DNA from: a virus
Length of the DNA stretch: 64,000 nucleotides
IMG/VR virus record: IMGVR_UViG_3300009000_000003
Direction: 5' to 3' (one strand)
Part shown: one piece after another, positions 40,704-64,000 of the stretch
Layout of the letters: every line of letters begins with the position of its first letter
Numbering within the stretch: position 1 is the stretch's first letter
The notes under the pieces: model-generated
What the model saw: the letters and a program-made list of their open reading frames with translations, nothing else
Databases searched by the model: none
What the model was told of the DNA's origin: nothing
Position numbers and translations under genes: made by a program

Positions 40704-41779
40704 AAAGCTCCTTTTTTTGTAGGTAAATGTGAGCCTAAATAATAGGTTTGAGAATCATTAAAATTAGTATTTCCGTAAGCATCTTGATAAATTACAGCAT
40801 AACCATTCATTGCGTTTTTAAATCTAAGATCAGGTTGGAATTGATAGGGAAGCTTATGAGCCATAGCCCCTTGCTCAATTAACATTTTTCCTGATACAAT
40901 TCCTTTATAAACTTTATGAGTATGCCCAACAACAATAGAATCAAAATCGTCGTAATGCATTCTTTCAGAAAAATGATCAAGTAATTTAACAACTGTAGCG
41001 CCAGGATATTTAGAGCCAAAACCACTAGGATGGCAAAAAATAGTTTTACCAACCCTAACATACCATGGATCATGTCTTTGATAGAGGACGTTATCGAAAT
41101 TAAGTTTTTCAATTAATTCTCCTCTGTCATTTAGTTTTTCACCATTGCTAATCTTAAACAATAGATCAGTACCAAATACTGAGCTAGCATCTTGATTAAA
41201 GCCTGCTTGTTTAACAGCTCGAGTAGTTCTATAATCATGGTTGCCGCATACTAATATTACTGTTTCAAAATGATCAGATAAGTAATGTACTAAATCAAAT
41301 GCTACTTTATATTCTTTTAAAGCAGCAATATTTTTGCTTTTAGAAAATGTACTAAATATATAAGCATCTAATATGTCGCCATTTAAAACAACAACATTAG
41401 CATCGGAATGCAAAGTTAAAGCAGCTTCCATATCTTCCCAAAGGAAAAATGGAACATGTAAATCACTAAAAGTAATGATTTTACGTTCTTTAGAAGTCGT
41501 AAGACCTAAATCTTTTTTAACAGATTTGGATCTATAGTCTTTAGTAGTTTTAATAATATAATCCCAAGAATCATTATAAGAAACAACGCTTTTAACATCA
41601 GGATCTCTAGAGATTTTATCTCTAGCAATCTTTCTGCGAATAGCATGTTCCGTTCTTTCAAAAGGAAAGCCTGGAACATTGTTTAAATGAAATTGAGAAT
41701 ATTTTTCTGCTAATTCTGAATTAGAATATTTGTTAATATTTTCAATTAGGAAGTTCTCTTCTTCAGGAGTCCACTTCAT
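40700..41779 (-). CDS. Calcineurin-like metallophosphoesterase with N-terminal HTH-like domain
   Basis: SDLH, NGDILD, GNHD and GHTH motifs; N-terminal WTPEEENFL helix. Confidence 0.85.
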   Translation of the reverse strand: MKWTPEEENFLIENINKYSNSELAEKYSQFHLNNVPGFPFERTEHAIRRKIARDKISRDPDVKSVVSYNDSWDYIIKTTKDYRSKSVKKDLGLTTSKERKIITFSDLHVPFFLWEDMEAALTLHSDANVVVLNGDILDAYIFSTFSKSKNIAALKEYKVAFDLVHYLSDHFETVILVCGNHDYRTTRAVKQAGFNQDASSVFGTDLLFKISNGEKLNDRGELIEKLNFDNVLYQRHDPWYVRVGKTIFCHPSGFGSKYPGATVVKLLDHFSERMHYDDFDSIVVGHTHKVYKGIVSGKMLIEQGAMAHKLPYQFQPDLRFKNAMNGYAVIYQDAYGNTNFNDSQTYYLGSHLPTKKGAL

Positions 41780-43022
41780 CTGTTTGTATTCTTTCTAAAT
41801 GTTTTAAAATTAATTTTATATCTGGATCTGTTTGTTCTACTTTTACTTTAGCTTTTATAATATCTGATTCTTTTAAACCAGTAGCTTTTATTTTTTCCCA
41901 TATAGAAGGAAACAATACAATCTCAGCACTAGCTGTAGAGTCATCTATTTCCATAAAAGCCATCATTTGTCCACGTCTAGTTTTAATTTCTTTTAACGAT
42001 AAAATTACTCCAGCTACTCTAGCATCTAAACCAGGAGTAAGTGAAGATAAATCTTCTTTATTAATTTGAATTAAATCCAAAGGATGACCGCCAATATAGC
42101 AGCCAATATAATTGGCTTGATCCATTATTTGTTTTAAAGTCAAAGGAACAAATTCTGTACGTTCAATTTCAGGAAAAGTAGGCTTTTCTTTTTTAGCTAA
42201 AGCAGGAAGCCTTTTTAATTTTTGATCTTCTAAATCTTGAAGCTCAGGTTCATAAATGTGAAGATTTGAAACATCTTCTTCTTTTTCTTTACCTTTAGAA
42301 ATACGATTAGTTATTTTTTTAACTTCATTGCGTAAATAATTACGTCTTTCAATTAAAGGTTCTACGCGCTCATTATGCCTTTGACGTTCTACATAGTCAA
42401 TTTCTCTTTGAGCATAATCTTCTAAATCTCTTACATATTGGTAAATACTAGAAGTATATTGAATCAAAGAATCTCGAGTATAACCCATTCGGTCAAAAGC
42501 ACCTGCATGGACTAAAGCTTCAAAAACTTTTGTATTTACTTTTTGTAAATTAACTCTATCGAGAAAATCTCTTACGCTTTTAAAAGGTAGATTACCTCTA
42601 GCTTTAATAATAGCTTTAGCTGCAGTTTTACCAACATCTCGAATAGCATTTAATCCAAAGTATATTTCATGATCTACAATGGTGAATTCATAACCGCTTT
42701 GATTAACACTAGGCGGATAAACATTTACATTAAAACGTTTGGCTTCATTAATATATTCAGGAGCTTTAACTGCCCAAGATTTAGGTTGTAAAGTTTTACT
42801 TCGAGTACTCATTAAGGCAGCAAAAAATTCTACAGGATAATGAGCCTTCATATATGCAGTAATATAAGTCAACATAGAATAACTTACACTGTGTGCTTTA
42901 TTAAAACAATTTGAAGCAACAAGACCATTAGCTAAAGTAAAATTATGAGTATTGGTGCTAGATGCAACACCAATATCATATACTTGTTGCTCTCCAAGAT
43001 ATTCTTTTTTAATAATTTTCAA
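41763..43022 (-). CDS. dnaE: DNA polymerase III alpha, part 3 (C-intein + fingers end, HhH, OB fold)
   Basis: TTG start; C-intein followed by CFNKAHSVSY, YMKAHYPVEF, FGLNAIRDVG, ALVHAGAFD, YIGGHPL and OB fold KTRRGQMMAFMEIDD. Confidence 0.95.
   Translation of the reverse strand: MKIIKKEYLGEQQVYDIGVASSTNTHNFTLANGLVASNCFNKAHSVSYSMLTYITAYMKAHYPVEFFAALMSTRSKTLQPKSWAVKAPEYINEAKRFNVNVYPPSVNQSGYEFTIVDHEIYFGLNAIRDVGKTAAKAIIKARGNLPFKSVRDFLDRVNLQKVNTKVFEALVHAGAFDRMGYTRDSLIQYTSSIYQYVRDLEDYAQREIDYVERQRHNERVEPLIERRNYLRNEVKKITNRISKGKEKEEDVSNLHIYEPELQDLEDQKLKRLPALAKKEKPTFPEIERTEFVPLTLKQIMDQANYIGCYIGGHPLDLIQINKEDLSSLTPGLDARVAGVILSLKEIKTRRGQMMAFMEIDDSTASAEIVLFPSIWEKIKATGLKESDIIKAKVKVEQTDPDIKLILKHLERIQTDEVDS
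42909..43022 (-). other. Split intein, C-terminal half (38 aa)
   Basis: MKIIKKEYLGEQQVYDIGV...HNFTLANGLVASN|CFN, closely resembling cyanobacterial DnaE Int-C. Confidence 0.95.
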
Positions 43023-51380: not shown

Positions 51381-51698
51381 TTATATATTATCTTTTGTAG
51401 AAAAAATATCTATTTCTTTAGTAAATAATAAATCAATTGGGAGCATTTGATTATTAGAAGACATAAATTTATGGTCTTCTGTACAATCAACATAATCTCC
51501 ATTTTCTAAAGTGTATCTGTAAACAGTTTTAATACCTTTATCGTGCCATTGAGTGACTTGTTGAGCAACCCAAGGGGTAGCTTGAGTTGAATCATTACTA
51601 AGTACAAAACCAGAATATTGAGCTTTAACAATATCTTCAATAGTTCTAGATCTTTTTGTAAGAGTAGGAATTAATATTTCGGTATTTCCTGCTAAACA
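51381..51698 (-). other. Split intein, N-terminal half (105 aa)
   Basis: CLAGNTEILI...QWHDKG...YTLENG...CTEDHKFM...QMLPID..F..EIDI, resembling cyanobacterial DnaE Int-N (blocks A and B). Confidence 0.95.
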
Positions 51699-52997
51699 AT
51701 AATCAGCAAAACCTAAAATATCTTTCCAAAGATCTTTAGCATAGTCAGATAACAAGCCACCTACTTTTACAGAATTTTCTATAAATTTTTCTTCATATTT
51801 TTCAAGAACGGAAAGTTTTTTCTTACCCATAGCTCGTCGAACATCATCTGCTTCTTGTTGAGTAAAACCTGCTAAATCGGTAAATAATTTCATAATTTGT
51901 TCCTGATATATTAAAGTCCAATAAGAAGCTTTTAGAATTTCAGCAACTTGAAGAGGTAAATCTTCAGGCGGAGAATTATTTAATTTATTAGCAATATAAG
52001 TTTTATCAAGACCAGCTTGCAAAGGGCCAGGGCGGTTGATAGCACTGATAGCACTAAGATCCTCTATGCTAGCGGGTTGTATGTCATTAATTAATCGTTT
52101 AGCGGTACCGGATGTTTCCATTTGAAAAATACCAGTTAAACAACCTAAATTTAAATATTTATAAGCTAACTCGTCGCCATCTGGTATAGAATAAGGCTCT
52201 AAATCTATGTTGTAATTTTGTTTAATTAAATTTTTACATTCTTTGATAATAGATAAAGTGTCAATACCTAAAAAATCAAACTTAATAAGCCCAAGCTCTT
52301 CACATTCATCTTTATCATATTGAGTAATTCTTTCTGCTTTACTATTAGACCAAACAGGGACAGTATCATGTATTTCTTTATCTGAAATAATGACACCTGC
52401 TGCATGGATGCCAAAATTAGCAACCATGTTTTCTATTCTATCAGCAAATTCTAAAAAAGCAGAATATCTTTGATCATCAGAAAGGTCGGGATTTTCTTCA
52501 AGAACTTCTTCTAAAGTAGGTTCTTTGCCATACTTAGGAGGAGGAAACATTTTTAATAACTCGTTAAGTTCAGAAGAATCACCTTCGTGTATTCTATAAA
52601 AAGAACGAGCTAATGATTTTGGTTTAAAAGTTCCATGAGTTATAATATTGGCAACTCTCTCACGCCCCCAATAATCAATGCACCATTGTATTGCTTTCTC
52701 TCTATCTAAAGCATCATGGTCTATATCAATATCGGGAGTCGCACCCCCAATAGTATCTGATCTCATTTTATTAAAATCAAACACATCGGTAAGTCCAGTA
52801 ATATAAAGTAAAATACTATTATATGGATTTTCTAAAAAAGAATGTTTAGACTGTAAACAAGATTCAATTCTGTCTAAATCTTCTAAAGAAATCATAGCAA
52901 CTTCTTGATGGAGAAAATCTGGATCTACTTTTTGATAACGATCTTCAATAATATAAGAATCTATTTCTTTTAAAAAAGTTTCTCGAGATTTAAACAT
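51381..52997 (-). CDS. dnaE: DNA polymerase III alpha, part 2 (palm/thumb/fingers + N-intein)
   Basis: PDIDID, GIHAAGVII, LIKFDFLG, GIFQME, AINRPGP, IYQEQIM, RRAMGKKK, then FADY|CLAG. Confidence 0.95.
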   Translation of the reverse strand: MFKSRETFLKEIDSYIIEDRYQKVDPDFLHQEVAMISLEDLDRIESCLQSKHSFLENPYNSILLYITGLTDVFDFNKMRSDTIGGATPDIDIDHDALDREKAIQWCIDYWGRERVANIITHGTFKPKSLARSFYRIHEGDSSELNELLKMFPPPKYGKEPTLEEVLEENPDLSDDQRYSAFLEFADRIENMVANFGIHAAGVIISDKEIHDTVPVWSNSKAERITQYDKDECEELGLIKFDFLGIDTLSIIKECKNLIKQNYNIDLEPYSIPDGDELAYKYLNLGCLTGIFQMETSGTAKRLINDIQPASIEDLSAISAINRPGPLQAGLDKTYIANKLNNSPPEDLPLQVAEILKASYWTLIYQEQIMKLFTDLAGFTQQEADDVRRAMGKKKLSVLEKYEEKFIENSVKVGGLLSDYAKDLWKDILGFADYCLAGNTEILIPTLTKRSRTIEDIVKAQYSGFVLSNDSTQATPWVAQQVTQWHDKGIKTVYRYTLENGDYVDCTEDHKFMSSNNQMLPIDLLFTKEIDIFSTKDNI

Positions 52998-53412: not shown

Positions 53413-53640
53413 TTATCTTACAGATGTCCAATCTGTATAATTTGTAAAATCACATTTCATAATTTTAACATCAGTTCTCTGAGTTAATCTTCTGTAAGAT
53501 CTAGCATCAGATCTAGTAGTGTGTAATGTCCTACCTTTAATAGTTATAGGTGTATTTGTCGTTTGATCGACAACAGCATAAAGAGTGGTAGCACAAGTAT
53601 CTATAGGAGTAACTAGATTAGTCATAATTATTTCTTTCAA
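53413..53640 (-). CDS. Hypothetical protein between dnaE parts 1 and 2
   Basis: Overlaps the part 1 stop; may start at the internal MTNLV. Confidence 0.5.
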   Translation of the reverse strand: MKEIIMTNLVTPIDTCATTLYAVVDQTTNTPITIKGRTLHTTRSDARSYRRLTQRTDVKIMKCDFTNYTDWTSVR

Positions 53641-54947
53641 AAAGGTAAAGTAAACTGATCTGCTTGCTCAGCCATTTGTTTATTAAAAATAAGAGGGGTA
53701 GCAGCACGACCCTCATTAAGAAAACGAGAAAACATAAGATCGTATTTAATTGGATCAATTTCAGTAATGCCTAAAGACCAGGCTACAAGAGAACCAGCAG
53801 CAGAACCTCGACCGGGCCCATGCATTACTCCATAATCTCTAGCACCATTCATAAATTGAGAAACAATTAACATATAATCAGAAAAACCCATACGTTTAAT
53901 TACATTTAATTCATGATCAAGCCTATCTCGATATTCTTGAGGAGGCATATCATTAAACCTATTGTATAAACCGTGTTGAGATTCTAAAGTAAGGAATTCA
54001 AAACTTTTATAAGTTTCTGGAAGATCTTGAAACTTAGGATAACGGTTCATTCTATCCATAAAATAAGTTTCATTATCTATCAAATCAGCTACATGAACTG
54101 TATTAGATATGACGTCGTAAGGCATATTTTGTTGGTTAGCTTCATTCCAAGTCCAATCATGAGATGCAAAATGAACATCTATTGGTCCGAAACTAAATCT
54201 TTTTTCATCAGAAAGTACAGTTTTAGTTTGCATACACAAAGCGGCTTCATGATGTTGTTTATCATGTTCATGAGTGTAATGACAATCACATGTAAGTACC
54301 ATAGGTAAATTATGTTTAGAAGCAATTTCTTGCAAAACTTTATTTACAGCTTGTTGCTCTTCATCTTTATGGAGTTGAAGTTCCACAAGAAATCTATCTT
54401 TAAACATTTCTTTATGATGTAAAATAAGATTTTCTGCGGCTTTTTTCTCACCCATAAGGATGAGTTGACTTGCTCTACTACCCAAACAAGTAGTGGTAGC
54501 AATAATACCTTCAGAATATTGAGCAATAAGAGCATCATCAATACGTGGTTTACGATACATACCTTCAGTATAAGCATAAGAACTGAGCTTCATGAGGTTA
54601 TGTAAACCAATATTATTTTGAGCTAACAAAATCAAATGATAATAAGACTTGCCTAAATGGTCAGGTTCTTTTGCAGTTCTATCATTTATAGTATAATAAG
54701 CTTCCATACCGATAATTGGTTTTATATCTTGTTTTTTACATTCTTTATAAAATTTGTAACTACCTGATACATTACCATGATCTGTCATCGCTACAGCAGG
54801 CATACCCATTTGTTTTGCATAAGCAGGAAGCCTATTAACTTTATTAATTCCATCTAAAAGACTATATTCTGTATGTACATGCAAATGCACATAAGGCTTT
54901 TCAGACGGATTCTGATGTTGGTTTTGATGATTGCATGTCGTTGCCAT
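53637..54947 (-). CDS. dnaE: DNA polymerase III alpha, part 1 (PHP domain + N-terminal palm with GRGS)
   Basis: HLHVHTEYSLLDG, TDHG, GMEAY, YHLILLA, KPRID, TCLG, CDCHY, GPGRGSAAGSLVAWSLGITEIDP, FSRFLN. Confidence 0.95.
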   Translation of the reverse strand: MATTCNHQNQHQNPSEKPYVHLHVHTEYSLLDGINKVNRLPAYAKQMGMPAVAMTDHGNVSGSYKFYKECKKQDIKPIIGMEAYYTINDRTAKEPDHLGKSYYHLILLAQNNIGLHNLMKLSSYAYTEGMYRKPRIDDALIAQYSEGIIATTTCLGSRASQLILMGEKKAAENLILHHKEMFKDRFLVELQLHKDEEQQAVNKVLQEIASKHNLPMVLTCDCHYTHEHDKQHHEAALCMQTKTVLSDEKRFSFGPIDVHFASHDWTWNEANQQNMPYDVISNTVHVADLIDNETYFMDRMNRYPKFQDLPETYKSFEFLTLESQHGLYNRFNDMPPQEYRDRLDHELNVIKRMGFSDYMLIVSQFMNGARDYGVMHGPGRGSAAGSLVAWSLGITEIDPIKYDLMFSRFLNEGRAATPLIFNKQMAEQADQFTLPF

Positions 54948-55341
54948 TTAATAAATTGCTTTCTTTTCCAGTACACACAAGCTTAAAATGTTCAAAGTAA
55001 TTGGGTTGCTCTTCAATTAAAGCACGTAAACCCATCTTACCACCAGTGCAAAGAGTTTCTTCTTCACTTGTCGTGGGATTTTGCCACTTTACTGCAGAGC
55101 CAGCAAAACGAACAAAACCCATGTCTTTTGCAAGACCAATGACATCCATGATTTTATCAGTGCCTTTAGCACATTCAAATTCAAATTCAGCTACTTTATT
55201 AAGAGCTGGAGCAACTTTGTTCTTAACTATTTTTACTTTCATAGCCAAAGTATTAGGAGAGTCAGAGCTAGGCTTAGAACTAACCCTGAGCCTAACAGAA
55301 GCGTAAAATGGAATAGCATTGCCACCTGAAGTTGTTTCTGG
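54901..55341 (-). CDS. recA: RecA exon 2
   Basis: PETTSGGNAIPFYASVRL, VKIVKNKVAP; in frame with exon 1 after intron removal (spliced product about 355 aa). Confidence 0.92.
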   Translation of the reverse strand, partial: PETTSGGNAIPFYASVRLRVSSKPSSDSPNTLAMKVKIVKNKVAPALNKVAEFEFECAKGTDKIMDVIGLAKDMGFVRFAGSAVKWQNPTTSEEETLCTGGKMGLRALIEEQPNYFEHFKLVCTGKESNLLNGNDMQSSKPTSESV

Positions 55342-56282
55342 CACGAAACTCCACAAGTTTACCATACTTGTGGCGTGGACTATATCTTCATCTTTCTCTC
55401 GAAAGAGCCTTGCGCTTGGGGAACGTACCAATCTCATTCCCTACTCTACTCACTTCCATCTTTCGATGTGTTTTCGATAGTCTCTACACCTTCCTCTATT
55501 AAAGAGGCTTGGCACGGTATTGCCCAATAAATGGAGGGGTTCACCGTTAGCCCGTAATGGACACCCACTGGTAGTGGTTCACAAGGTTTTTTTCCTAGAG
55601 TCGCCTCTAGGGGAAACCGTAGAAACTGAAGTATAGTTTCTTTAGCAGTGTCAATATTCTCTTCTAATATAACGCAATAATGATAACCCATAGAAGTTAG
55701 CTCTTTGATTTTTCTTTGATCACTCTTCTTTTGTTTTTCGAAAGAGTGAGCCCAAGAGCCATGAATATCTATACAATACTTTTGACCAAGATAAAAATCA
55801 ATAGACCATTGATTAATTCGTTTTTCATAGATATAAGCTAAATCTAATTCATCTAAAATTTCTTTAAGCTTTTCTTCTAAACGATTCATGGAAACATTTC
55901 TTCTAACAGAAACGCCCATGGCTTTTCTTTTGTGGCCAACAGCAGATTCACTACAGCCCCAAAGATCAGCTAGTTTAACATGGCTAAGATAAGGGTCTTT
56001 AAGCATTTGGATAGCTTCAGGAGTATTGGGAATTTTCTTACGATACATACGTTGTCTTTTTAAACCTAAGGCTTTTAAAAGACGGTAAACTGTTTCGTCA
56101 CAAAAATTTAAATACTCTTGAAGTTCTGTTAATTTCATTAAATTGTAATTCTTTTGAACAAATTGAATTTGTTCTTGAGTAATTTCTTTATTAAAAGTGA
56201 CACCGTTTATAGTAGTTGACATATAACCTCCTGTAAAGTTGGCATATAGTAAACTACACAAAACAATACTTATTTCAAGTTA
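55342..56282 (-). mobile_element. Group I intron (941 nt) in recA
   Basis: Exon 1 ends in U (GGA AAU) and the intron ends in G before CCA GAA. Core elements: P-like AACGGTGAA, Q-like AATACCGTGCCAAG, R GTAGAGACTAT, S AAGATATAGTCC (P7), P3 CCTTGTG/CGCAAGG, P9 CCACAAGT..ACTTGTGG. IGS GTTTCTACGGTTTCC at 55612-55626. Confidence 0.93.
55446..56222 (-). CDS. Intron-encoded homing endonuclease, Vsr-like/EDxHD type with N-terminal HTH-like repeats
   Basis: RBS GGAGG before the ATG at 56222; LEEKL...IDFYL...IDIHGSWAH...SDQRK...GYHYCVI. Confidence 0.8.
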   Translation of the reverse strand: MSTTINGVTFNKEITQEQIQFVQKNYNLMKLTELQEYLNFCDETVYRLLKALGLKRQRMYRKKIPNTPEAIQMLKDPYLSHVKLADLWGCSESAVGHKRKAMGVSVRRNVSMNRLEEKLKEILDELDLAYIYEKRINQWSIDFYLGQKYCIDIHGSWAHSFEKQKKSDQRKIKELTSMGYHYCVILEENIDTAKETILQFLRFPLEATLGKKPCEPLPVGVHYGLTVNPSIYWAIPCQASLIEEGVETIENTSKDGSE

Positions 56283-56909
56283 ATTTCCGTACATGACACC
56301 AATATTCATGCGAACTTGGTTAATAAATAAATATAAACAATCATGATCTACACTAATTTTGCTAATAGCTCGGAGAGCTTTAGAAAGTAATCTAGGTAAA
56401 TCACCAACGCCCATCTCATTCATAAGTCGTTTAGTATCTCGTTCTGATTGAGCAGCGTCAATAGAGTCAAATACAATAACGCCTACTTTACCAGTCTTGC
56501 CAAGATCTTGGCAAAGCTGAAGCGCTTCTTCAGCAGTATCAGGGTAACAGAAAACCATACGATCAGGGTCGATTCCCATAGACTTAATAAGATCTAAACC
56601 AGTAGTACGCTCTAAATCTACAAATACTGGGACTCTATCGTAACCATAAGTATCTACATAAGACTTAACGATTTGAAGGCAAAGACTAGTTTTGCCAGCG
56701 CTTGGAGGACCAAATATTTCTACAACTCTATCTGAAGGTAAACCTCCGACACCTAAAGCAGAGTCAAGAGTTACAGAACCTGTAGAAATTGCTTTTACTT
56801 TTTCATACTTTGGACCAAGAGAAATAGAATCTTCTTTGCCAAACTTTTTACTAATACTATTAGCAATTGCATCAATTTCTGGAATACCTGTAATTTTTTT
56901 AATTGCCAT
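56283..56909 (-). CDS. recA: RecA exon 1
   Basis: ISTGSVTLDSALGVGGLP, EIFGPPSAGKT, VFDSI, FINQVRMNIGVMYGN. Confidence 0.95.
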
Positions 56910-57322: not shown

Positions 57323-57662
57323 TTAATATTTTCTTATCAATATTAATTACTTCAAAAAATTGAGAATCTAAAGTACCATAATCATATGGAGCGTTAGTTT
57401 TATGGCCTTCTCTAAAAAAGAAACCAGAAGAACCACTATTGATTGGATAAGTTACATCCTCCATTATACCTCTAGACAAATATTCTCCAGAGCCAGAAAG
57501 TACTTTAAAAGGTACATCTGACAACCTAGTAGGCGAAGATACTATTTCAACTAAAGTTCCAGGATTTAAATAGCCTGGTCCAGGACGATTGTAATCGTTA
57601 TCTTTAATCTTTACTTTCTTGAGGACTTTTAGTTTGAGCCCTTTCTTCAGCTTTATTGTCAT
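57291..57662 (-). CDS. Hypothetical protein
   Basis: RBS GAGG. Confidence 0.55.
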   Translation of the reverse strand: MTIKLKKGLKLKVLKKVKIKDNDYNRPGPGYLNPGTLVEIVSSPTRLSDVPFKVLSGSGEYLSRGIMEDVTYPINSGSSGFFFREGHKTNAPYDYGTLDSQFFEVINIDKKILNDPNISPSKN

Positions 57663-58242
57663 TTAACACCTCGTCTAAATTAATTACTTCAAAAGTAACT
57701 TTATTATCTTTAATTGCGTCTCTAATTCGTCTTTGAGATTTGTTTAAAGAAGATTTACCAGTTTTTATATCTATGAATTTTATAGAAACTATCTCATCAG
57801 ACTTTTTATCTAATAAATCACTAAGGCCTTCAAAAAGAACATAATCCACAGGATTGCCCATAAAGCGATAATCTTTAGGATTAGTACCTTTAATTATAAA
57901 AGGTGCAAGATGTTCTGTAGCTTGGCCACGCATAACTGATCTAGATTTATCTAAAGCGTCTTTTCTTGCTTTAATAAGTTCATTTTTATGAGAAGCTTTT
58001 AAAATTGTTATTTGATTTTCTAAAGAATATACTTCTTCAAGAGAATTAGATAACTTGTTTTGGTTTTCTTCAAACTGATCAAAAAGTTTTTCTTTAGCTT
58101 CTTTAACTTCAAGAGATTTAGTTACTAATTGAGTAGCTAATTCAGAAAGAACAGTATTGAGCTCTTTGTTTTTTTTGTTTAAAAAATAAGCATAAATTAA
58201 TAAAGAAAAATATGCTATTATAAATAATATTTTATAAATCAT
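57604..58242 (-). CDS. Membrane-anchored Holliday junction resolvase-like endonuclease (Endonuc_Holl family)
   Basis: N-terminal TM + coiled coil; SRSVMRGQATEHLAPF, RFMGNPVDYVLFEG, FIDIKTG..L...QRRIRDAI. Confidence 0.8.
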   Translation of the reverse strand: MIYKILFIIAYFSLLIYAYFLNKKNKELNTVLSELATQLVTKSLEVKEAKEKLFDQFEENQNKLSNSLEEVYSLENQITILKASHKNELIKARKDALDKSRSVMRGQATEHLAPFIIKGTNPKDYRFMGNPVDYVLFEGLSDLLDKKSDEIVSIKFIDIKTGKSSLNKSQRRIRDAIKDNKVTFEVINLDEVLNDNKAEERAQTKSPQESKD

Positions 58243-59181: not shown

Positions 59182-60156
59182 TTAATTAATTAAAGACCAA
59201 TCTAGTTCTCCAGAAAGGCCAGAAGCGTTATAATCAGTAACTGTTCCTTCAAAAAAATTCTTAAAGGAATCTCCAGAAACAATCCAATCAAGCCAAGGCA
59301 ATGGGTTGTCTTTTTGTTTAAAAATAGGTTTCATACCAAGCTGAAGCAGTCTTCTATCCGCTAAATAAGAAATATACTTTTTAACTTCTTCACGAGTTAA
59401 ACCTTGAGAAGAAGAGTTATCGTATATTAAGTCAATTAAATCATGCTCTAATTTAACAGCTTGAGTAAAATTACTATAAATATATGTTTTTAAAGTATCT
59501 GTAACTAAATGAGGGTTTTCTTCTAGGTATGTATGAAATAATTTAGTTATAGCCTCTACATGAAGAGTTTCATCTCGTATAGACCATTCAACAATCTCAC
59601 ACATGCCTTTCATTTTACCAAATCTTTGATAGTTTAAAAGCATTACAAATGCAGAAAAAAGAGACATGCCTTCATTACAAACGCTCCTTGCTAATTCAAA
59701 AGCAAGATTTTGATCATGCTTCTTCATGCTTTTAGGAGGTTGCATCATAAAATCAATTTTATCTGACATCTCTTTAAATTTTAAAAATAAAGAATATTCT
59801 TCTTCAGGAATTCCTAAAGTATCATTTAAGAGTGCATATGATCTTTGGTGAGTTCCTTCGCGATTAGCAAAAGAAAGAAGCATATTGCGTATTTCATTAT
59901 TTTTAAAAGCCTGTATAAATATATCACAATAATTTCCTCCGACAGCTACATCTGACTGAGTAAAAATTCTCAAGATATTTGTGATATGATTTTTTTCTTC
60001 TTGAGTAATTTTATTTGATTTCCATTGGTTTAAATCTTCTTGAAGTTTAGCTTCCCAAGAACCCCAATGAATTTTTTCGTGTTGTTCAGCATATTCCATA
60101 GCCCAAGGATAATTAAAGGGCTTATAAGTTTTAGAGTATTCGGTTAACCTTGACAT
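59182..60156 (-). CDS. nrdB: Ribonucleotide reductase class Ia beta subunit
   Basis: YKPFNYPWA, FTQSDV, REGTH..SY, EGMSLFSAF, WSIRDETLH, NFFEGTVTDY. Confidence 0.95.
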   Translation of the reverse strand: MSRLTEYSKTYKPFNYPWAMEYAEQHEKIHWGSWEAKLQEDLNQWKSNKITQEEKNHITNILRIFTQSDVAVGGNYCDIFIQAFKNNEIRNMLLSFANREGTHQRSYALLNDTLGIPEEEYSLFLKFKEMSDKIDFMMQPPKSMKKHDQNLAFELARSVCNEGMSLFSAFVMLLNYQRFGKMKGMCEIVEWSIRDETLHVEAITKLFHTYLEENPHLVTDTLKTYIYSNFTQAVKLEHDLIDLIYDNSSSQGLTREEVKKYISYLADRRLLQLGMKPIFKQKDNPLPWLDWIVSGDSFKNFFEGTVTDYNASGLSGELDWSLIN

Positions 60157-61859
60157 GAAAGGCACTCCTCAAAATCTTTTAAAGTTTTTCGTTCGATTTT
60201 ATTAGAAACTTTTTCTCCAGAAACACCAGCATTAGTTCTTAAATAATAAAGACCTTTTAGATTGCGTTTCCAAGCAATAATATGAGTCATATTGACATTA
60301 TTGATATCGGTACCGCTAGGAAAGAAAAGATTTACAGATTGTCCCTGACAAATCCATTCCTGCCTAATAGCTGCATGTTCAATTATCCAGGTTTGGTCTA
60401 ATTCAAACGCAGTTTTAAATACTTGTTTTTCGTAATCAGTCAAATAATCAAGGTGTTGAATTGAACCTTGAGCAAGAATAATAGATTGAATTTGATCATC
60501 AAGCCAAGAGTCTTCTTCAGAAAGAATATTTTGATGTTTTTTTAAACATTCTAAAAGATATTTATTTACTTGAAGAAAAGAACCTGCTCTTGTTCTATGG
60601 GTAAAAGCATTAGATTTCCAAGGCTCAATACTAGGAGAAGTATTAAGAATAATACTACTATTGGCGTTAGGAGCAATAGCAAGTAAATGGCTATTCCTTC
60701 TTGTTTTAGTATCGTCATCTAAATAAGCACCTTTTTCTTTTGCTAATCTTTCAGTTGCAAGCACAGCTTCAGATTTAATAAAAGAAAATATATTTCTATT
60801 TAAAGAAATAGCTAAAGCAGATTCAAAAGCAATATTTTTTCTTTGAAGCAAGCTATGAAATCCCATAGCTCCAAGACCAAGAGATCTTTCTCTTGTAGCA
60901 GAAAAAACTGCTTTTTCTAAATGACTAGGAGCGTTAACAATAAAATATTGCAAAACATCGTCTAAATATTCAATTAAATCTTGGACAATTGAAGTTTCTT
61001 TCCAATCATCAAAATATTCAAGATTTAAAGATGATAAGCAGCAAACTGCAGACCTATCAGGGGACGTGGGTAAGTGAATTTCATTGCATAAATTAGATCC
61101 ATTTATTTTAAGTCCTTTATTTTTTAATTGAATGGGAAGTTTATTATTTGCACTGTCAATAAAATTTAAATAAGGTTCACCAGTTCGAAATCTTGCTTCT
61201 AATATTCTAGTCCAAAGTTTTCTAGCTGATAAAGTATCAAAAATTGTTTTATGTTTAGGATCGACAAGATCCCACTTTTTATCTAGAAGAACAGCTTCCA
61301 TAAAAGAGTCAGTAATGTTTATTGCATTATGTATATTAAAACATTTACGATTTGAATCACCGCCAGTAGGCATTCTAATATTTAAAAATTCCAAAATATC
61401 AGGATGACTAATGTCTATGTAAGCAGCATAACTTCCTCTGCGAGTGCTACCTTGAGAATAAGCTAGCATGTCGGAATCAACTGTTTTTAAAAAAGGTATA
61501 GGTCCTGGAGACTTCTTTGAAACAGAACGAATGTCGGACCAATGGCCTCCAACGCCTCCACCCATAACACTCATCCACCGCAATTCTTCTGTATGCTGAA
61601 TTAAACCTTCAACTGAATCGGGTACATAAGATAAGAAACAAGATATAGGTAGTCCAGTTCTGCCAGCGTTTGACAAAATAGGACTGCTAAACATAAACCA
61701 ACCTTTTTTAGCATATTCTGCAATTCTAGAAGCTAGATCTTTGTTATCAGTATAAGCATAAGCTGCTCGAGTAAAAGCTTCTTCAGGAGAAGTCTCTCCA
61801 TCAGCAAAATAATAATTTTGTAATAATGAAATTGCGTGATCTGAAAAGACAAAATTCAT
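60144..61859 (-). CDS. nrdA: Ribonucleotide reductase class Ia alpha subunit (short, no ATP cone)
   Basis: PISCFL, GSNLCNEI, VCCLSSLN, AIAPNANSS, LYYLR, C-terminal CLSCQG. Confidence 0.95.
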   Translation of the reverse strand: MNFVFSDHAISLLQNYYFADGETSPEEAFTRAAYAYTDNKDLASRIAEYAKKGWFMFSSPILSNAGRTGLPISCFLSYVPDSVEGLIQHTEELRWMSVMGGGVGGHWSDIRSVSKKSPGPIPFLKTVDSDMLAYSQGSTRRGSYAAYIDISHPDILEFLNIRMPTGGDSNRKCFNIHNAINITDSFMEAVLLDKKWDLVDPKHKTIFDTLSARKLWTRILEARFRTGEPYLNFIDSANNKLPIQLKNKGLKINGSNLCNEIHLPTSPDRSAVCCLSSLNLEYFDDWKETSIVQDLIEYLDDVLQYFIVNAPSHLEKAVFSATRERSLGLGAMGFHSLLQRKNIAFESALAISLNRNIFSFIKSEAVLATERLAKEKGAYLDDDTKTRRNSHLLAIAPNANSSIILNTSPSIEPWKSNAFTHRTRAGSFLQVNKYLLECLKKHQNILSEEDSWLDDQIQSIILAQGSIQHLDYLTDYEKQVFKTAFELDQTWIIEHAAIRQEWICQGQSVNLFFPSGTDINNVNMTHIIAWKRNLKGLYYLRTNAGVSGEKVSNKIERKTLKDFEECLSCQG

Positions 61860-62149: not shown

Positions 62150-62713
62150 CTATTGAGAGGTAAATTTCATTTCTACGGAAAGAGATAATCCAATTTGCTC
62201 AAATACTTTTCTAAGTTCAAGTAATGTATCGAATCTTTGTTTCCAAAAAGTCTTTACAATTCTTGCTGCTTTTTCTGCAGAAACTGTGTTGGATAAATAA
62301 CTATCCGCCATTCTTTCAATAACAGTTGCAGCTGGACGCTTTGCTCCCTTGGCTGCAAAATTTGAGACAATAATATTTATCAAATCACTTTTTTTAATAC
62401 TATTGCCACCACCTATAGCATCAACCATAGAAGAGGCAAGAGAATAATAATTTGAAGAAATTTGAATATTGTTAGCAAGCTTAGTTAAAAGAGCTCTAAA
62501 TTTTAAAATATCAAGCTCTTTAACAGTAGGAACTTCAATCATAAGATCAGAAGCCCATTCATATAAGGTTTTATCATAAAAGATAAACTCTTTTATAAAG
62601 CTTTCAGTAATAGCTGAGTAAGTTTCAGCACCAATTTTAAGCTCATCTACAAGCTCTTGAGCTTCAATATTTATAAGCTCAATAACTTTTTCTTCATTGG
62701 TTTCTGCTGTCAT
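62150..62713 (-). CDS. Helical hypothetical protein (possibly UvsY-like)
   Basis: TAATG coupling to spoVG; all-helical pattern. The UvsY resemblance is weak. Confidence 0.4.
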   Translation of the reverse strand: MTAETNEEKVIELINIEAQELVDELKIGAETYSAITESFIKEFIFYDKTLYEWASDLMIEVPTVKELDILKFRALLTKLANNIQISSNYYSLASSMVDAIGGGNSIKKSDLINIIVSNFAAKGAKRPAATVIERMADSYLSNTVSAEKAARIVKTFWKQRFDTLLELRKVFEQIGLSLSVEMKFTSQ

Positions 62714-63126
62714 TAAAAGCCCCAAAGAGGTTTACGTTCGCGAGAAGTAACTGCACCGGGATCAGATTGTGCTGCAACCTCTCTAGCTGCGCTAACTTTA
62801 GCTTTAGAAGGAGCCGAAGATGCAGATGTAGCAGCTAGTGGGTCTGAAGTAGATGCATAAGAATTTAAAATAGAATCTTTAAGCTCTTTAGAGAAAGCTA
62901 AACCATCTTCATTCTTGAATCGAATATCATCAAAATATTTTTCGACTTTTTGACCATCTTCCATAATAGTACCTTTGTGGCTTGGAACAGATACAAAAAG
63001 ACCATTAGAACCTTGAATGATTTTAAAGCCGTCAATCTCCATGATATCGTCAATAATAACAGAAGCAATACCTTTAAGCTTTGATGCTGAATTAATTTTT
63101 CTTACATTAATCGTATATGAAAACAT
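62713..63126 (-). CDS. spoVG: SpoVG-family nucleic-acid-binding protein
   Basis: LKGIASVIIDD...GFKIIQGSNGLFVSVPS...ILNSY matches the SpoVG consensus. Confidence 0.85.
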   Translation of the reverse strand: MFSYTINVRKINSASKLKGIASVIIDDIMEIDGFKIIQGSNGLFVSVPSHKGTIMEDGQKVEKYFDDIRFKNEDGLAFSKELKDSILNSYASTSDPLAATSASSAPSKAKVSAAREVAAQSDPGAVTSRERKPLWGF

Positions 63127-63404
63127 TATTTATCCTTAATAATTTCAACATTATTTTTTACTAAAAATAATTTATAATAATAGCCAACTAAAAAATATAT
63201 AGAGAGTAATTGTTTTAAAGTTAAATCATCGACTTTATCAAAATTTGCAAAATAAGAATTTAATTCTTTTACAAAAGCATCAATAACTTCTTGATCTTTT
63301 TGTTCTAAATTTTCGTTTACATGCTTTAATAAGTTTAAAGTGAGCTGATTGAGATTTAAATTAAAAGAATCACCCTGAGAAGGAGAAACTTTAAATTTAA
63401 ACAT
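63126..63404 (-). CDS. Hypothetical protein
   Basis: Coupled between the Whirly-like gene and spoVG. Confidence 0.55.
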   Translation of the reverse strand: MFKFKVSPSQGDSFNLNLNQLTLNLLKHVNENLEQKDQEVIDAFVKELNSYFANFDKVDDLTLKQLLSIYFLVGYYYKLFLVKNNVEIIKDK

Positions 63405-63405
63405 A

Positions 63406-63834
63406 CTACTGCCACCCTAACATTCGAGGAAGAGCAGCAGTAAATAATCTACCAAGAACTTGAAACTCTCCAGCAGATAAAGAAACAGAAACTCTTTTAT
63501 CCCCTGAAGAAAGACCCATCATAAAAGTACCAGCATATTTACCTTCGCCAGGTGTAATAGTAAGCTTTTTGCCAGTACCATCATTATCATGATAAAAACT
63601 TCCCCACTTTGGGGAAGAAGGATCATCAAAAAATTGAGTTAAATCATTGATACCAAAAGCAAATGTAATCTTTTGATTTTTCCAATCATAAGATTTTTCT
63701 CCTTGAGAAGGAGCCATCTCTAAAAGCACCGCACCAGTTTTTTGAATTCTATTATTATCGTCTACTCTAGGAGGCAATAAAGTGAATTGAGCTGCTGCAG
63801 ATTTTTTATAAATGTTAAATGAAGTTGGATACAT
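63406..63834 (-). CDS. Whirly-family ssDNA-binding protein homolog
   Basis: RBS AAGGA before the ATG at 63834. Motifs IYKKSAA, GAVLLEMAP..G.KSYDW, FYHD, KKLTITP and GEFQVL..LF...LPRMLGW are collinear with the plant Whirly domain. Confidence 0.75.
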   Translation of the reverse strand: MYPTSFNIYKKSAAAQFTLLPPRVDDNNRIQKTGAVLLEMAPSQGEKSYDWKNQKITFAFGINDLTQFFDDPSSPKWGSFYHDNDGTGKKLTITPGEGKYAGTFMMGLSSGDKRVSVSLSAGEFQVLGRLFTAALPRMLGWQ

Positions 63835-64000
63835 TATTTTCCTTTTCCAAGTTATAATATTCGTCGGAAATTGATTCACAAAGATCAGCTAATACAGATC
63901 TATATTGTGAAGTTAAAGTTATTTGTGAAGTTGCTGTAGAATCTTTAAATGCATAAGATTCTAAAAAAATGTGTAAACCAGATTCCTTTTTTCTAAAAGG

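Follow-up and report, generated by a model that had tools for sequence, protein, structure and literature searches.

A Whirly-family protein in a large tailed phage and its possible role beside phage RecA

Plant Whirly proteins are single-stranded DNA (ssDNA) binding tetramers that melt duplexes and limit microhomology-driven rearrangement. Reviews and a preprint of 2026 describe the family as confined to plants or as having arisen in eukaryotes (PMC9070903, PMC4758235, PMC11135702, bioRxiv 10.64898/2026.10.24.761589). A minus-strand open reading frame at 63406-63834 of a 64-kb stretch of viral DNA, here called the window, raises the question of whether a phage encodes a genuine member of this family, and, if so, what that protein does and how it relates to its plant counterparts.

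Sequence and predicted structure of the phage Whirly protein

The product of 63406-63834 is a genuine Whirly-family protein. The frame is intact, with an ATG start and 142 codons, and reading the sequence we observe a ribosome-binding-like AGGA (63840-63843, minus) placed 6-9 nt before the ATG. The 142-aa protein (pI 9.2) is a bare domain, with residues 6-141 forming the Whirly domain, and its assignment draws on Pfam PF08536, PDB sequence matches, AlphaFold2, Foldseek and VIA, with WHY1 and StWhy2 as the matched proteins. The Pfam Whirly profile, which the earlier note had named as a check on its proposed phage homolog of plant Whirly, scores 51.3 bits (E 1.4e-13), where the cut-off is 23, and is covered from position 1 to 134 of 136. 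Significant PDB sequence matches are confined to plant WHY1/2/3 and PBF-2 p24 (E 1e-8 to 4e-7), and a profile built from 120 short homologs reaches the plant Whirly PDB entries at E 2e-27. The homology claim is supported by profile, PDB matches, fold and a predicted tetramer, and every phage motif on which it was based is present in the translation. The match had also been described as full length and collinear. The plant motifs do occur in the same order in 1l3a, but the description as full length applies to the Whirly domain only, and a 7-residue deletion follows the conserved histidine (H82).

The phage protein shares with the plant organellar Whirlies (StWhy2, 3n1h; PBF-2 p24, 1l3a; Arabidopsis WHY1-3) a whole-domain sequence match, the fold and the conserved W/H/K/G/E positions, and is predicted to share the tetramer. 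It differs in being phage-encoded within an operon that contains SpoVG and in having neither a targeting (transit) peptide nor an acidic/aromatic C-terminal tail, which places it outside the higher-plant WHIRLY subtype. Among 128 short and 22 eukaryotic homologs, W51 and H82 are invariant, and K89 is kept in 120 of the short and all of the eukaryotic rows. In the profile alignment Y9, W51, H82 and K89 fall opposite StWhy2 F64, W110, H139 and K153, which we take to be contact residues on the DNA face; their role in DNA contact was reportedly described by Cappadocia in 2010. The equivalent of W100 is alanine, as it is in potato p24. The loop that follows H82 is 6 residues long, as against 13 in 16 of the 22 eukaryotic and 28 of the 128 short rows. 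The plant KGKAAL motif reads KKSAAA here, with Ser12 in place of the second lysine (the K67 position). Because the motif is missing from algal Whirlies too (PMC9070903), the absent lysine excludes the higher-plant subtype and not membership of the Whirly family.

The AlphaFold2 model (pLDDT 96.7) has a topology of four strands and a helix, repeated twice. As the earlier note had proposed to check, the model superposes on a StWhy structure: against potato WHY2 (3n1h) it gives Z 18.9 with rmsd 1.8 A over 137 aligned residues, and against Arabidopsis WHY1 a Foldseek E of 8e-10 with TM 0.85. WHY proteins rank first in the structural comparison, followed by MRP1/2 at Z 13.3 (16% identity for MRP), with all others below 6. 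A four-copy prediction scores 0.95 against 0.00 for the best control, with at least 95% of contacts common to runs and pLDDT of at least 91, a mark that, in a calibration limited to two-copy cases, 20 of 30 solved self-pairs attain, as does 1 of 23 single chains. This score may stem from resemblance to solved Whirly tetramers. In our main reading the protein most likely forms the whirligig homotetramer. The second lysine of KGKAAL is required for 24-mers and cooperative binding (PMC3245945), and with Ser12 at its place the phage protein probably stays tetrameric, forming no cooperative 24-mers.

Gene neighbourhood and the question of the main SSB

The window, with its baseplate, tail fibre, primase-helicase, RecA and RNR genes and its DnaE pieces, comes from a large tailed phage. 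Two contigs encode an identical Whirly protein, one of 154.6 kb that is 99.97% identical to the window and one of 155.8 kb, and the carrier is a myophage lineage of lytic type with a genome of ~155 kb. The genes from PhoH to RecA lie on the minus strand, and the first five, Whirly among them, abut or overlap. The first is a PhoH-family gene, present in the window as the 3' end of an open frame (63815-64000) with a 20-nt overlap with the Whirly start, and found whole (PF02562) in contig L052, which is 99.97% identical. After Whirly, a conserved 92-aa gene with no assigned function (63126-63404) starts 1 nt past the Whirly stop and holds the same place in L001, L004 and L013. It is followed by a SpoVG-family nucleic-acid-binding protein (62713-63126; PF04026, E 1.9e-13) that overlaps both neighbours at its start and stop and has a long tail ending in W-x-F, and then by a 187-aa all-helical protein (62150-62713), a candidate UvsY-type recombination mediator whose gene adjoins SpoVG in 10 of 10 records. 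Beyond these lie the large and small subunits of ribonucleotide reductase (59182-61859; Pfam matches on the identical genes in L052), an endonuclease related to Holliday junction resolvases (57604-58242; PF10107, E 2e-33), and, 6.5 kb from Whirly, the phage RecA (54901-56909). RecA is in two pieces, 56280-56909 and 54901-55437, which match PF00154 positions 3-198 and 197-260; an HNH-like ORF (55446-56261) with PHROG HNH/intron nuclease matches separates them and is a probable mobile intron. The interruption falls at one profile position in the window, L001 and L004, and RecA is uninterrupted in seven other relatives.

This arrangement recurs. SpoVG scores above cut-off within ~1 kb of Whirly in all ten virus records, and RecA is present in nine of the ten; in distant members, at ~30% identity, SpoVG is still at most three genes away, and two of these members also have the helical gene. 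An uncultured Caudovirales phage entry, CAB4160126.1, belongs to the same family and has the same order of PhoH, Whirly, an intervening gene, SpoVG and the helical gene. The likeness of the helical protein to UvsY is suggestive only: T4 UvsY (4zwq) comes fourth in its structural ranking (Z 8.8 and rmsd 5.4 over 127 aligned residues), level with helical bundles that are unrelated, Foldseek gives E 0.5, the UvsY label is on 13% of the members of its atlas cluster, and Pfam UvsY (PF11056) has no match to it. Comparison of Whirly and SpoVG profiles gave no sequence relation, ERF annealase and sigma-70 region 2 were absent from five relatives, and promoter and terminator scans gave chance-level signals only.

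Two other features deserve mention in their own right. Upstream of PhoH (L001:2039-7755; L052:3030-8042) we observe a conserved block in which a ThiF/E1-like gene is accompanied by genes for small proteins, ubiquitin-like by eye and one of them a triple repeat, a possible phage ubiquitin-like system. The DnaE-type polymerase is in three pieces (53637-54947, 51381-52997 and 41763-43022 in the window), the middle one ending in an intein-like segment that is below cut-off and the last being separated from it by 8.4 kb that include tail-fibre genes; they are candidates for a split intein.

The earlier note had suggested that Whirly might itself be the phage's SSB, and noted that no OB-fold SSB is seen in the window. 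There is indeed none there, but the window stops 166 bp upstream of the Whirly gene, short of the place where an SSB would be expected. Eight of ten Whirly-bearing virus records also encode an OB-fold SSB (PF00436 above cut-off), 10-13 kb upstream of Whirly, including both complete genomes and a relative with a 92% identical Whirly; the two records without one are fragments. The phage's own DNA was read 9.8 kb upstream, and the last gene there matches one whose place in seven relatives is two genes away from ssb, so that by synteny the ssb of this phage would be placed just past the stretch read. It is thus very probable that a separate OB-fold SSB serves the fork of this phage, and this part of the earlier proposal is not supported. 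It is very unlikely that Whirly is the main replicative SSB in place of an OB-fold protein, a reading that could appeal to the SSB-less window and to the relatives' SSBs, which are mostly short and without an acidic tail and so may be atypical; Whirly likewise lacks such a tail, which tells against it. It could also appeal to T5, whose PC4 homolog, like other PC4-like ssDNA binders, is phage-encoded and of the same superfamily, and is implicated in recombination-dependent replication (cited in PMC7549692); these proteins differ from Whirly in being single-repeat dimers of unrelated sequence. The relatives' OB-fold SSBs (L014, L015, L024-L028) are 107-126 aa long, while the SpoVG homologs have a long, flexible tail with W-x-F or W at its end; a shift of the docking role is possible.

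An accessory role in recombination and its rivals

We hold it most likely, at little better than an even chance, that Whirly acts as an accessory to phage RecA in recombination. The phage's RecA, resolvase, probable SSB and Whirly mirror the plant set, and in the vicinity of RecA the Whirly gene is coupled both to SpoVG and to the gene with weak likeness to UvsY; we therefore regard an accessory RecA role as the best reading. Arabidopsis WHY1/3 raise the strand-exchange product of RecA1 from <10% to 41-51%, and canonical mitochondrial SSBs give RecA1 strand exchange no help (bioRxiv 10.64898/2026.10.24.761589). In such a scheme, one coupled run of PhoH, Whirly, the 92-aa gene, SpoVG and the helical gene would yield Whirly, with RNR, resolvase and RecA downstream. 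The predicted tetramer, in a protein whose homology and fold the analysis shows, would bind ssDNA with no sequence preference. An OB-fold SSB would serve the fork, leaving Whirly as a second, specialised ssDNA binder that would coat or melt resected and displaced strands, block annealing at short false homologies, and aid strand exchange by phage RecA in recombination-dependent replication and repair, much as WHY1/3 do with RecA1 in vitro. A distant Whirly member that sits among RecA, ligase, PolA and primase genes speaks for this reading. On the other side, 6.5 kb separate Whirly from RecA, the helical neighbour is weakly like UvsY, the constant neighbours PhoH and SpoVG are not recombination proteins, and several distant Whirly contexts are free of RecA within the DNA read.

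These same constant neighbours bear on a different reading, in which Whirly mainly binds RNA or acts as an RNA chaperone together with SpoVG, whether to handle transcripts, to control translation or to splice introns. The linkage to SpoVG, fixed across deep divergence, and PhoH upstream would suit such a function. Listeria SpoVG is RNA-binding (PMC4959528), plant WHY binds RNA too and assists intron splicing (PMC4758235), and the RecA of this phage looks intron-split. Other Whirly-fold proteins also favour RNA: ChmC of Chimalliviridae jumbo phages, which is phage-borne and has an affinity for RNA three times that for DNA, and trypanosome MRP1/MRP2 have the Whirly-type fold and tetramer. The likeness of ChmC and MRP1/MRP2 to WHY is one of fold with no sequence similarity, whereas the phage Whirly is far nearer to plant WHY than to MRP in structural score and retains the plant-type W/H/K set. 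The gene is moreover kept in relatives whose RecA is uninterrupted. We therefore consider a mainly RNA-binding role unlikely, if worth keeping in view.

It is also conceivable that Whirly generally coats, compacts or shields phage DNA, in nucleoid-like packing or in the protection of ssDNA from host nucleases and sensors, with no specific link to RecA. Plant WHY1 compacts nucleoids, in E. coli too (PMC9070903, PMC4758235), a histone-like Hc1 gene lies upstream of Whirly in contig L052, and a distant plasmid family of Whirly-like genes adjoins MvaT/ParB or Rep genes. We judge a general coating role quite improbable, since serine replaces the lysine needed for cooperative binding and the operon is one of replication and recombination. 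An accessory role beside RecA thus remains our preferred reading.

Distribution and origin of the family

The phage Whirly has 100 close homologs, and a search with E up to 0.001 gives 298 clusters at 50% identity; the best 150 of these 298 are mostly proteins of 125-200 aa with no leader, together with ~22 longer proteins of eukaryote type. Wherever the context of a short protein was fetched it was phage-like (10 of 10), most other members being on short contigs, and in atlas clusters of look-alikes viruses make up 60-100% of the members for which there is a record. Chromosomal matches are scarce. With a positive control run for these scans, the family profile had no match in a set of 401 genomes from a single proteobacterial class, chosen around a MAG titled Alphaproteobacteria, and two weak partial matches, both of the plasmid-type family, in 401 genomes of the proteobacterial phylum. 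Pfam Whirly was above cut-off in none of 14 control genomes, in which cyanobacteria are represented by one. PHROGs gave no match to the phage Whirly, three queries of cultured-phage records no Whirly, plasmids queried with P0204 no match, and a GTDB scan with the protein's own patterns, whose reach is close relatives only, nothing.

Several members extend this picture. Plasmids of proteobacteria (52 records; L136:1099-1968, L137:1324-2310, L138-L141) encode proteins of 240-400 aa that end in a distant, unannotated Whirly-like domain, in genes adjoining Rep, MvaT/ParB or helicase genes. Profile-profile comparison links it to the phage family at 96.9% (E 1.5e-10, 120 columns); it matches potato p24 at E 5e-4, and one member is barely above the Pfam cut-off. 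A phage-like contig carries a long-loop, eukaryote-like Whirly (L029:8001-8603) between RecA, an ATP ligase, a UDG-PolA fusion and primase. A minimal Whirly of 127 aa adjoins SpoVG on a 195-kb contig (L008-L010) that is found in 825 blocks of the collection, and this lineage is an abundant phage. A 77% identical homolog, P0054, is filed under Candidatus Pacearchaeota and is probably from a phage contig in a genome bin. Beyond green plants, Whirlies occur in Euglena gracilis and as eukaryote-like proteins with signal-like or mitochondrial-type leaders (P0241, P0231, P0233, P0172), and all of these fall inside the eukaryotic clade.

The earlier note had hinted at a viral source for plant Whirly. 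Such a source is plausible, although root tests were uninformative and the clade of the window's Whirly is not the nearest to eukaryotes. Our trees use ~150 columns, the 65-row set omits long branches and fragments, and it was mostly the leader that decided which rows count as eukaryotic. The eukaryotic Whirlies fall into a single clade (support 100/97), and the rows nearest to it are short proteins with the long loop, of which two come from phage-like contigs; the window's Whirly belongs to a separate short-loop group. The midpoint root shifted with sampling, and under a non-reversible model 98 of 127 root positions escaped rejection. A quick tree with a plasmid outgroup had nested eukaryotes inside the phage-type rows, a claim we dropped, as holding the phage-type rows as one clade is 9 log units better (p-AU 0.70). 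We likewise set aside an apparent closeness of the window's Whirly to eukaryotes by high mean identity: this is selection bias, because the eukaryotic rows were found with the query and their mean identity to it is thereby inflated. We favour a mobile-element source of Whirly, because the family is found in phages and plasmids and is scarce in the sampled chromosomes. More tentatively, and well short of an even chance, Whirly may be an old family of bacterial mobile elements, comprising large phages and a distant plasmid branch. It would have passed into eukaryotes a single time, the donor being a phage lineage whose Whirly had the long post-His loop, and would serve as the RecA accessory ssDNA binder in both settings.

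Literature searches on Whirly, SpoVG or T5, limited to papers open without subscription, returned no paper on phage Whirly homologs at the sequence level. A member of the family is already labelled in NCBI, as CAB4160126.1, where "Whirly transcription factor" is an automatic label, though it is in no paper that we found. The well over 100 clusters at 50% identity of short homologs, phage-like wherever context was read, remove the "plant-specific" label from the family, and rarity in ~800 sampled proteobacterial genomes, with two weak plasmid-type matches only, supports this. The origin of the family thereby becomes testable by phylogeny, and a minimal Whirly, 142 aa long and accompanied in its phage by RecA and probably by an SSB, is available for reconstitution. 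Were the mobile-element scenario true, Whirly, SpoVG, the UvsY-like protein and RecA would together be a recombination system not described before, and one from which an organelle genome guardian regarded as "plant-specific" had sprung.
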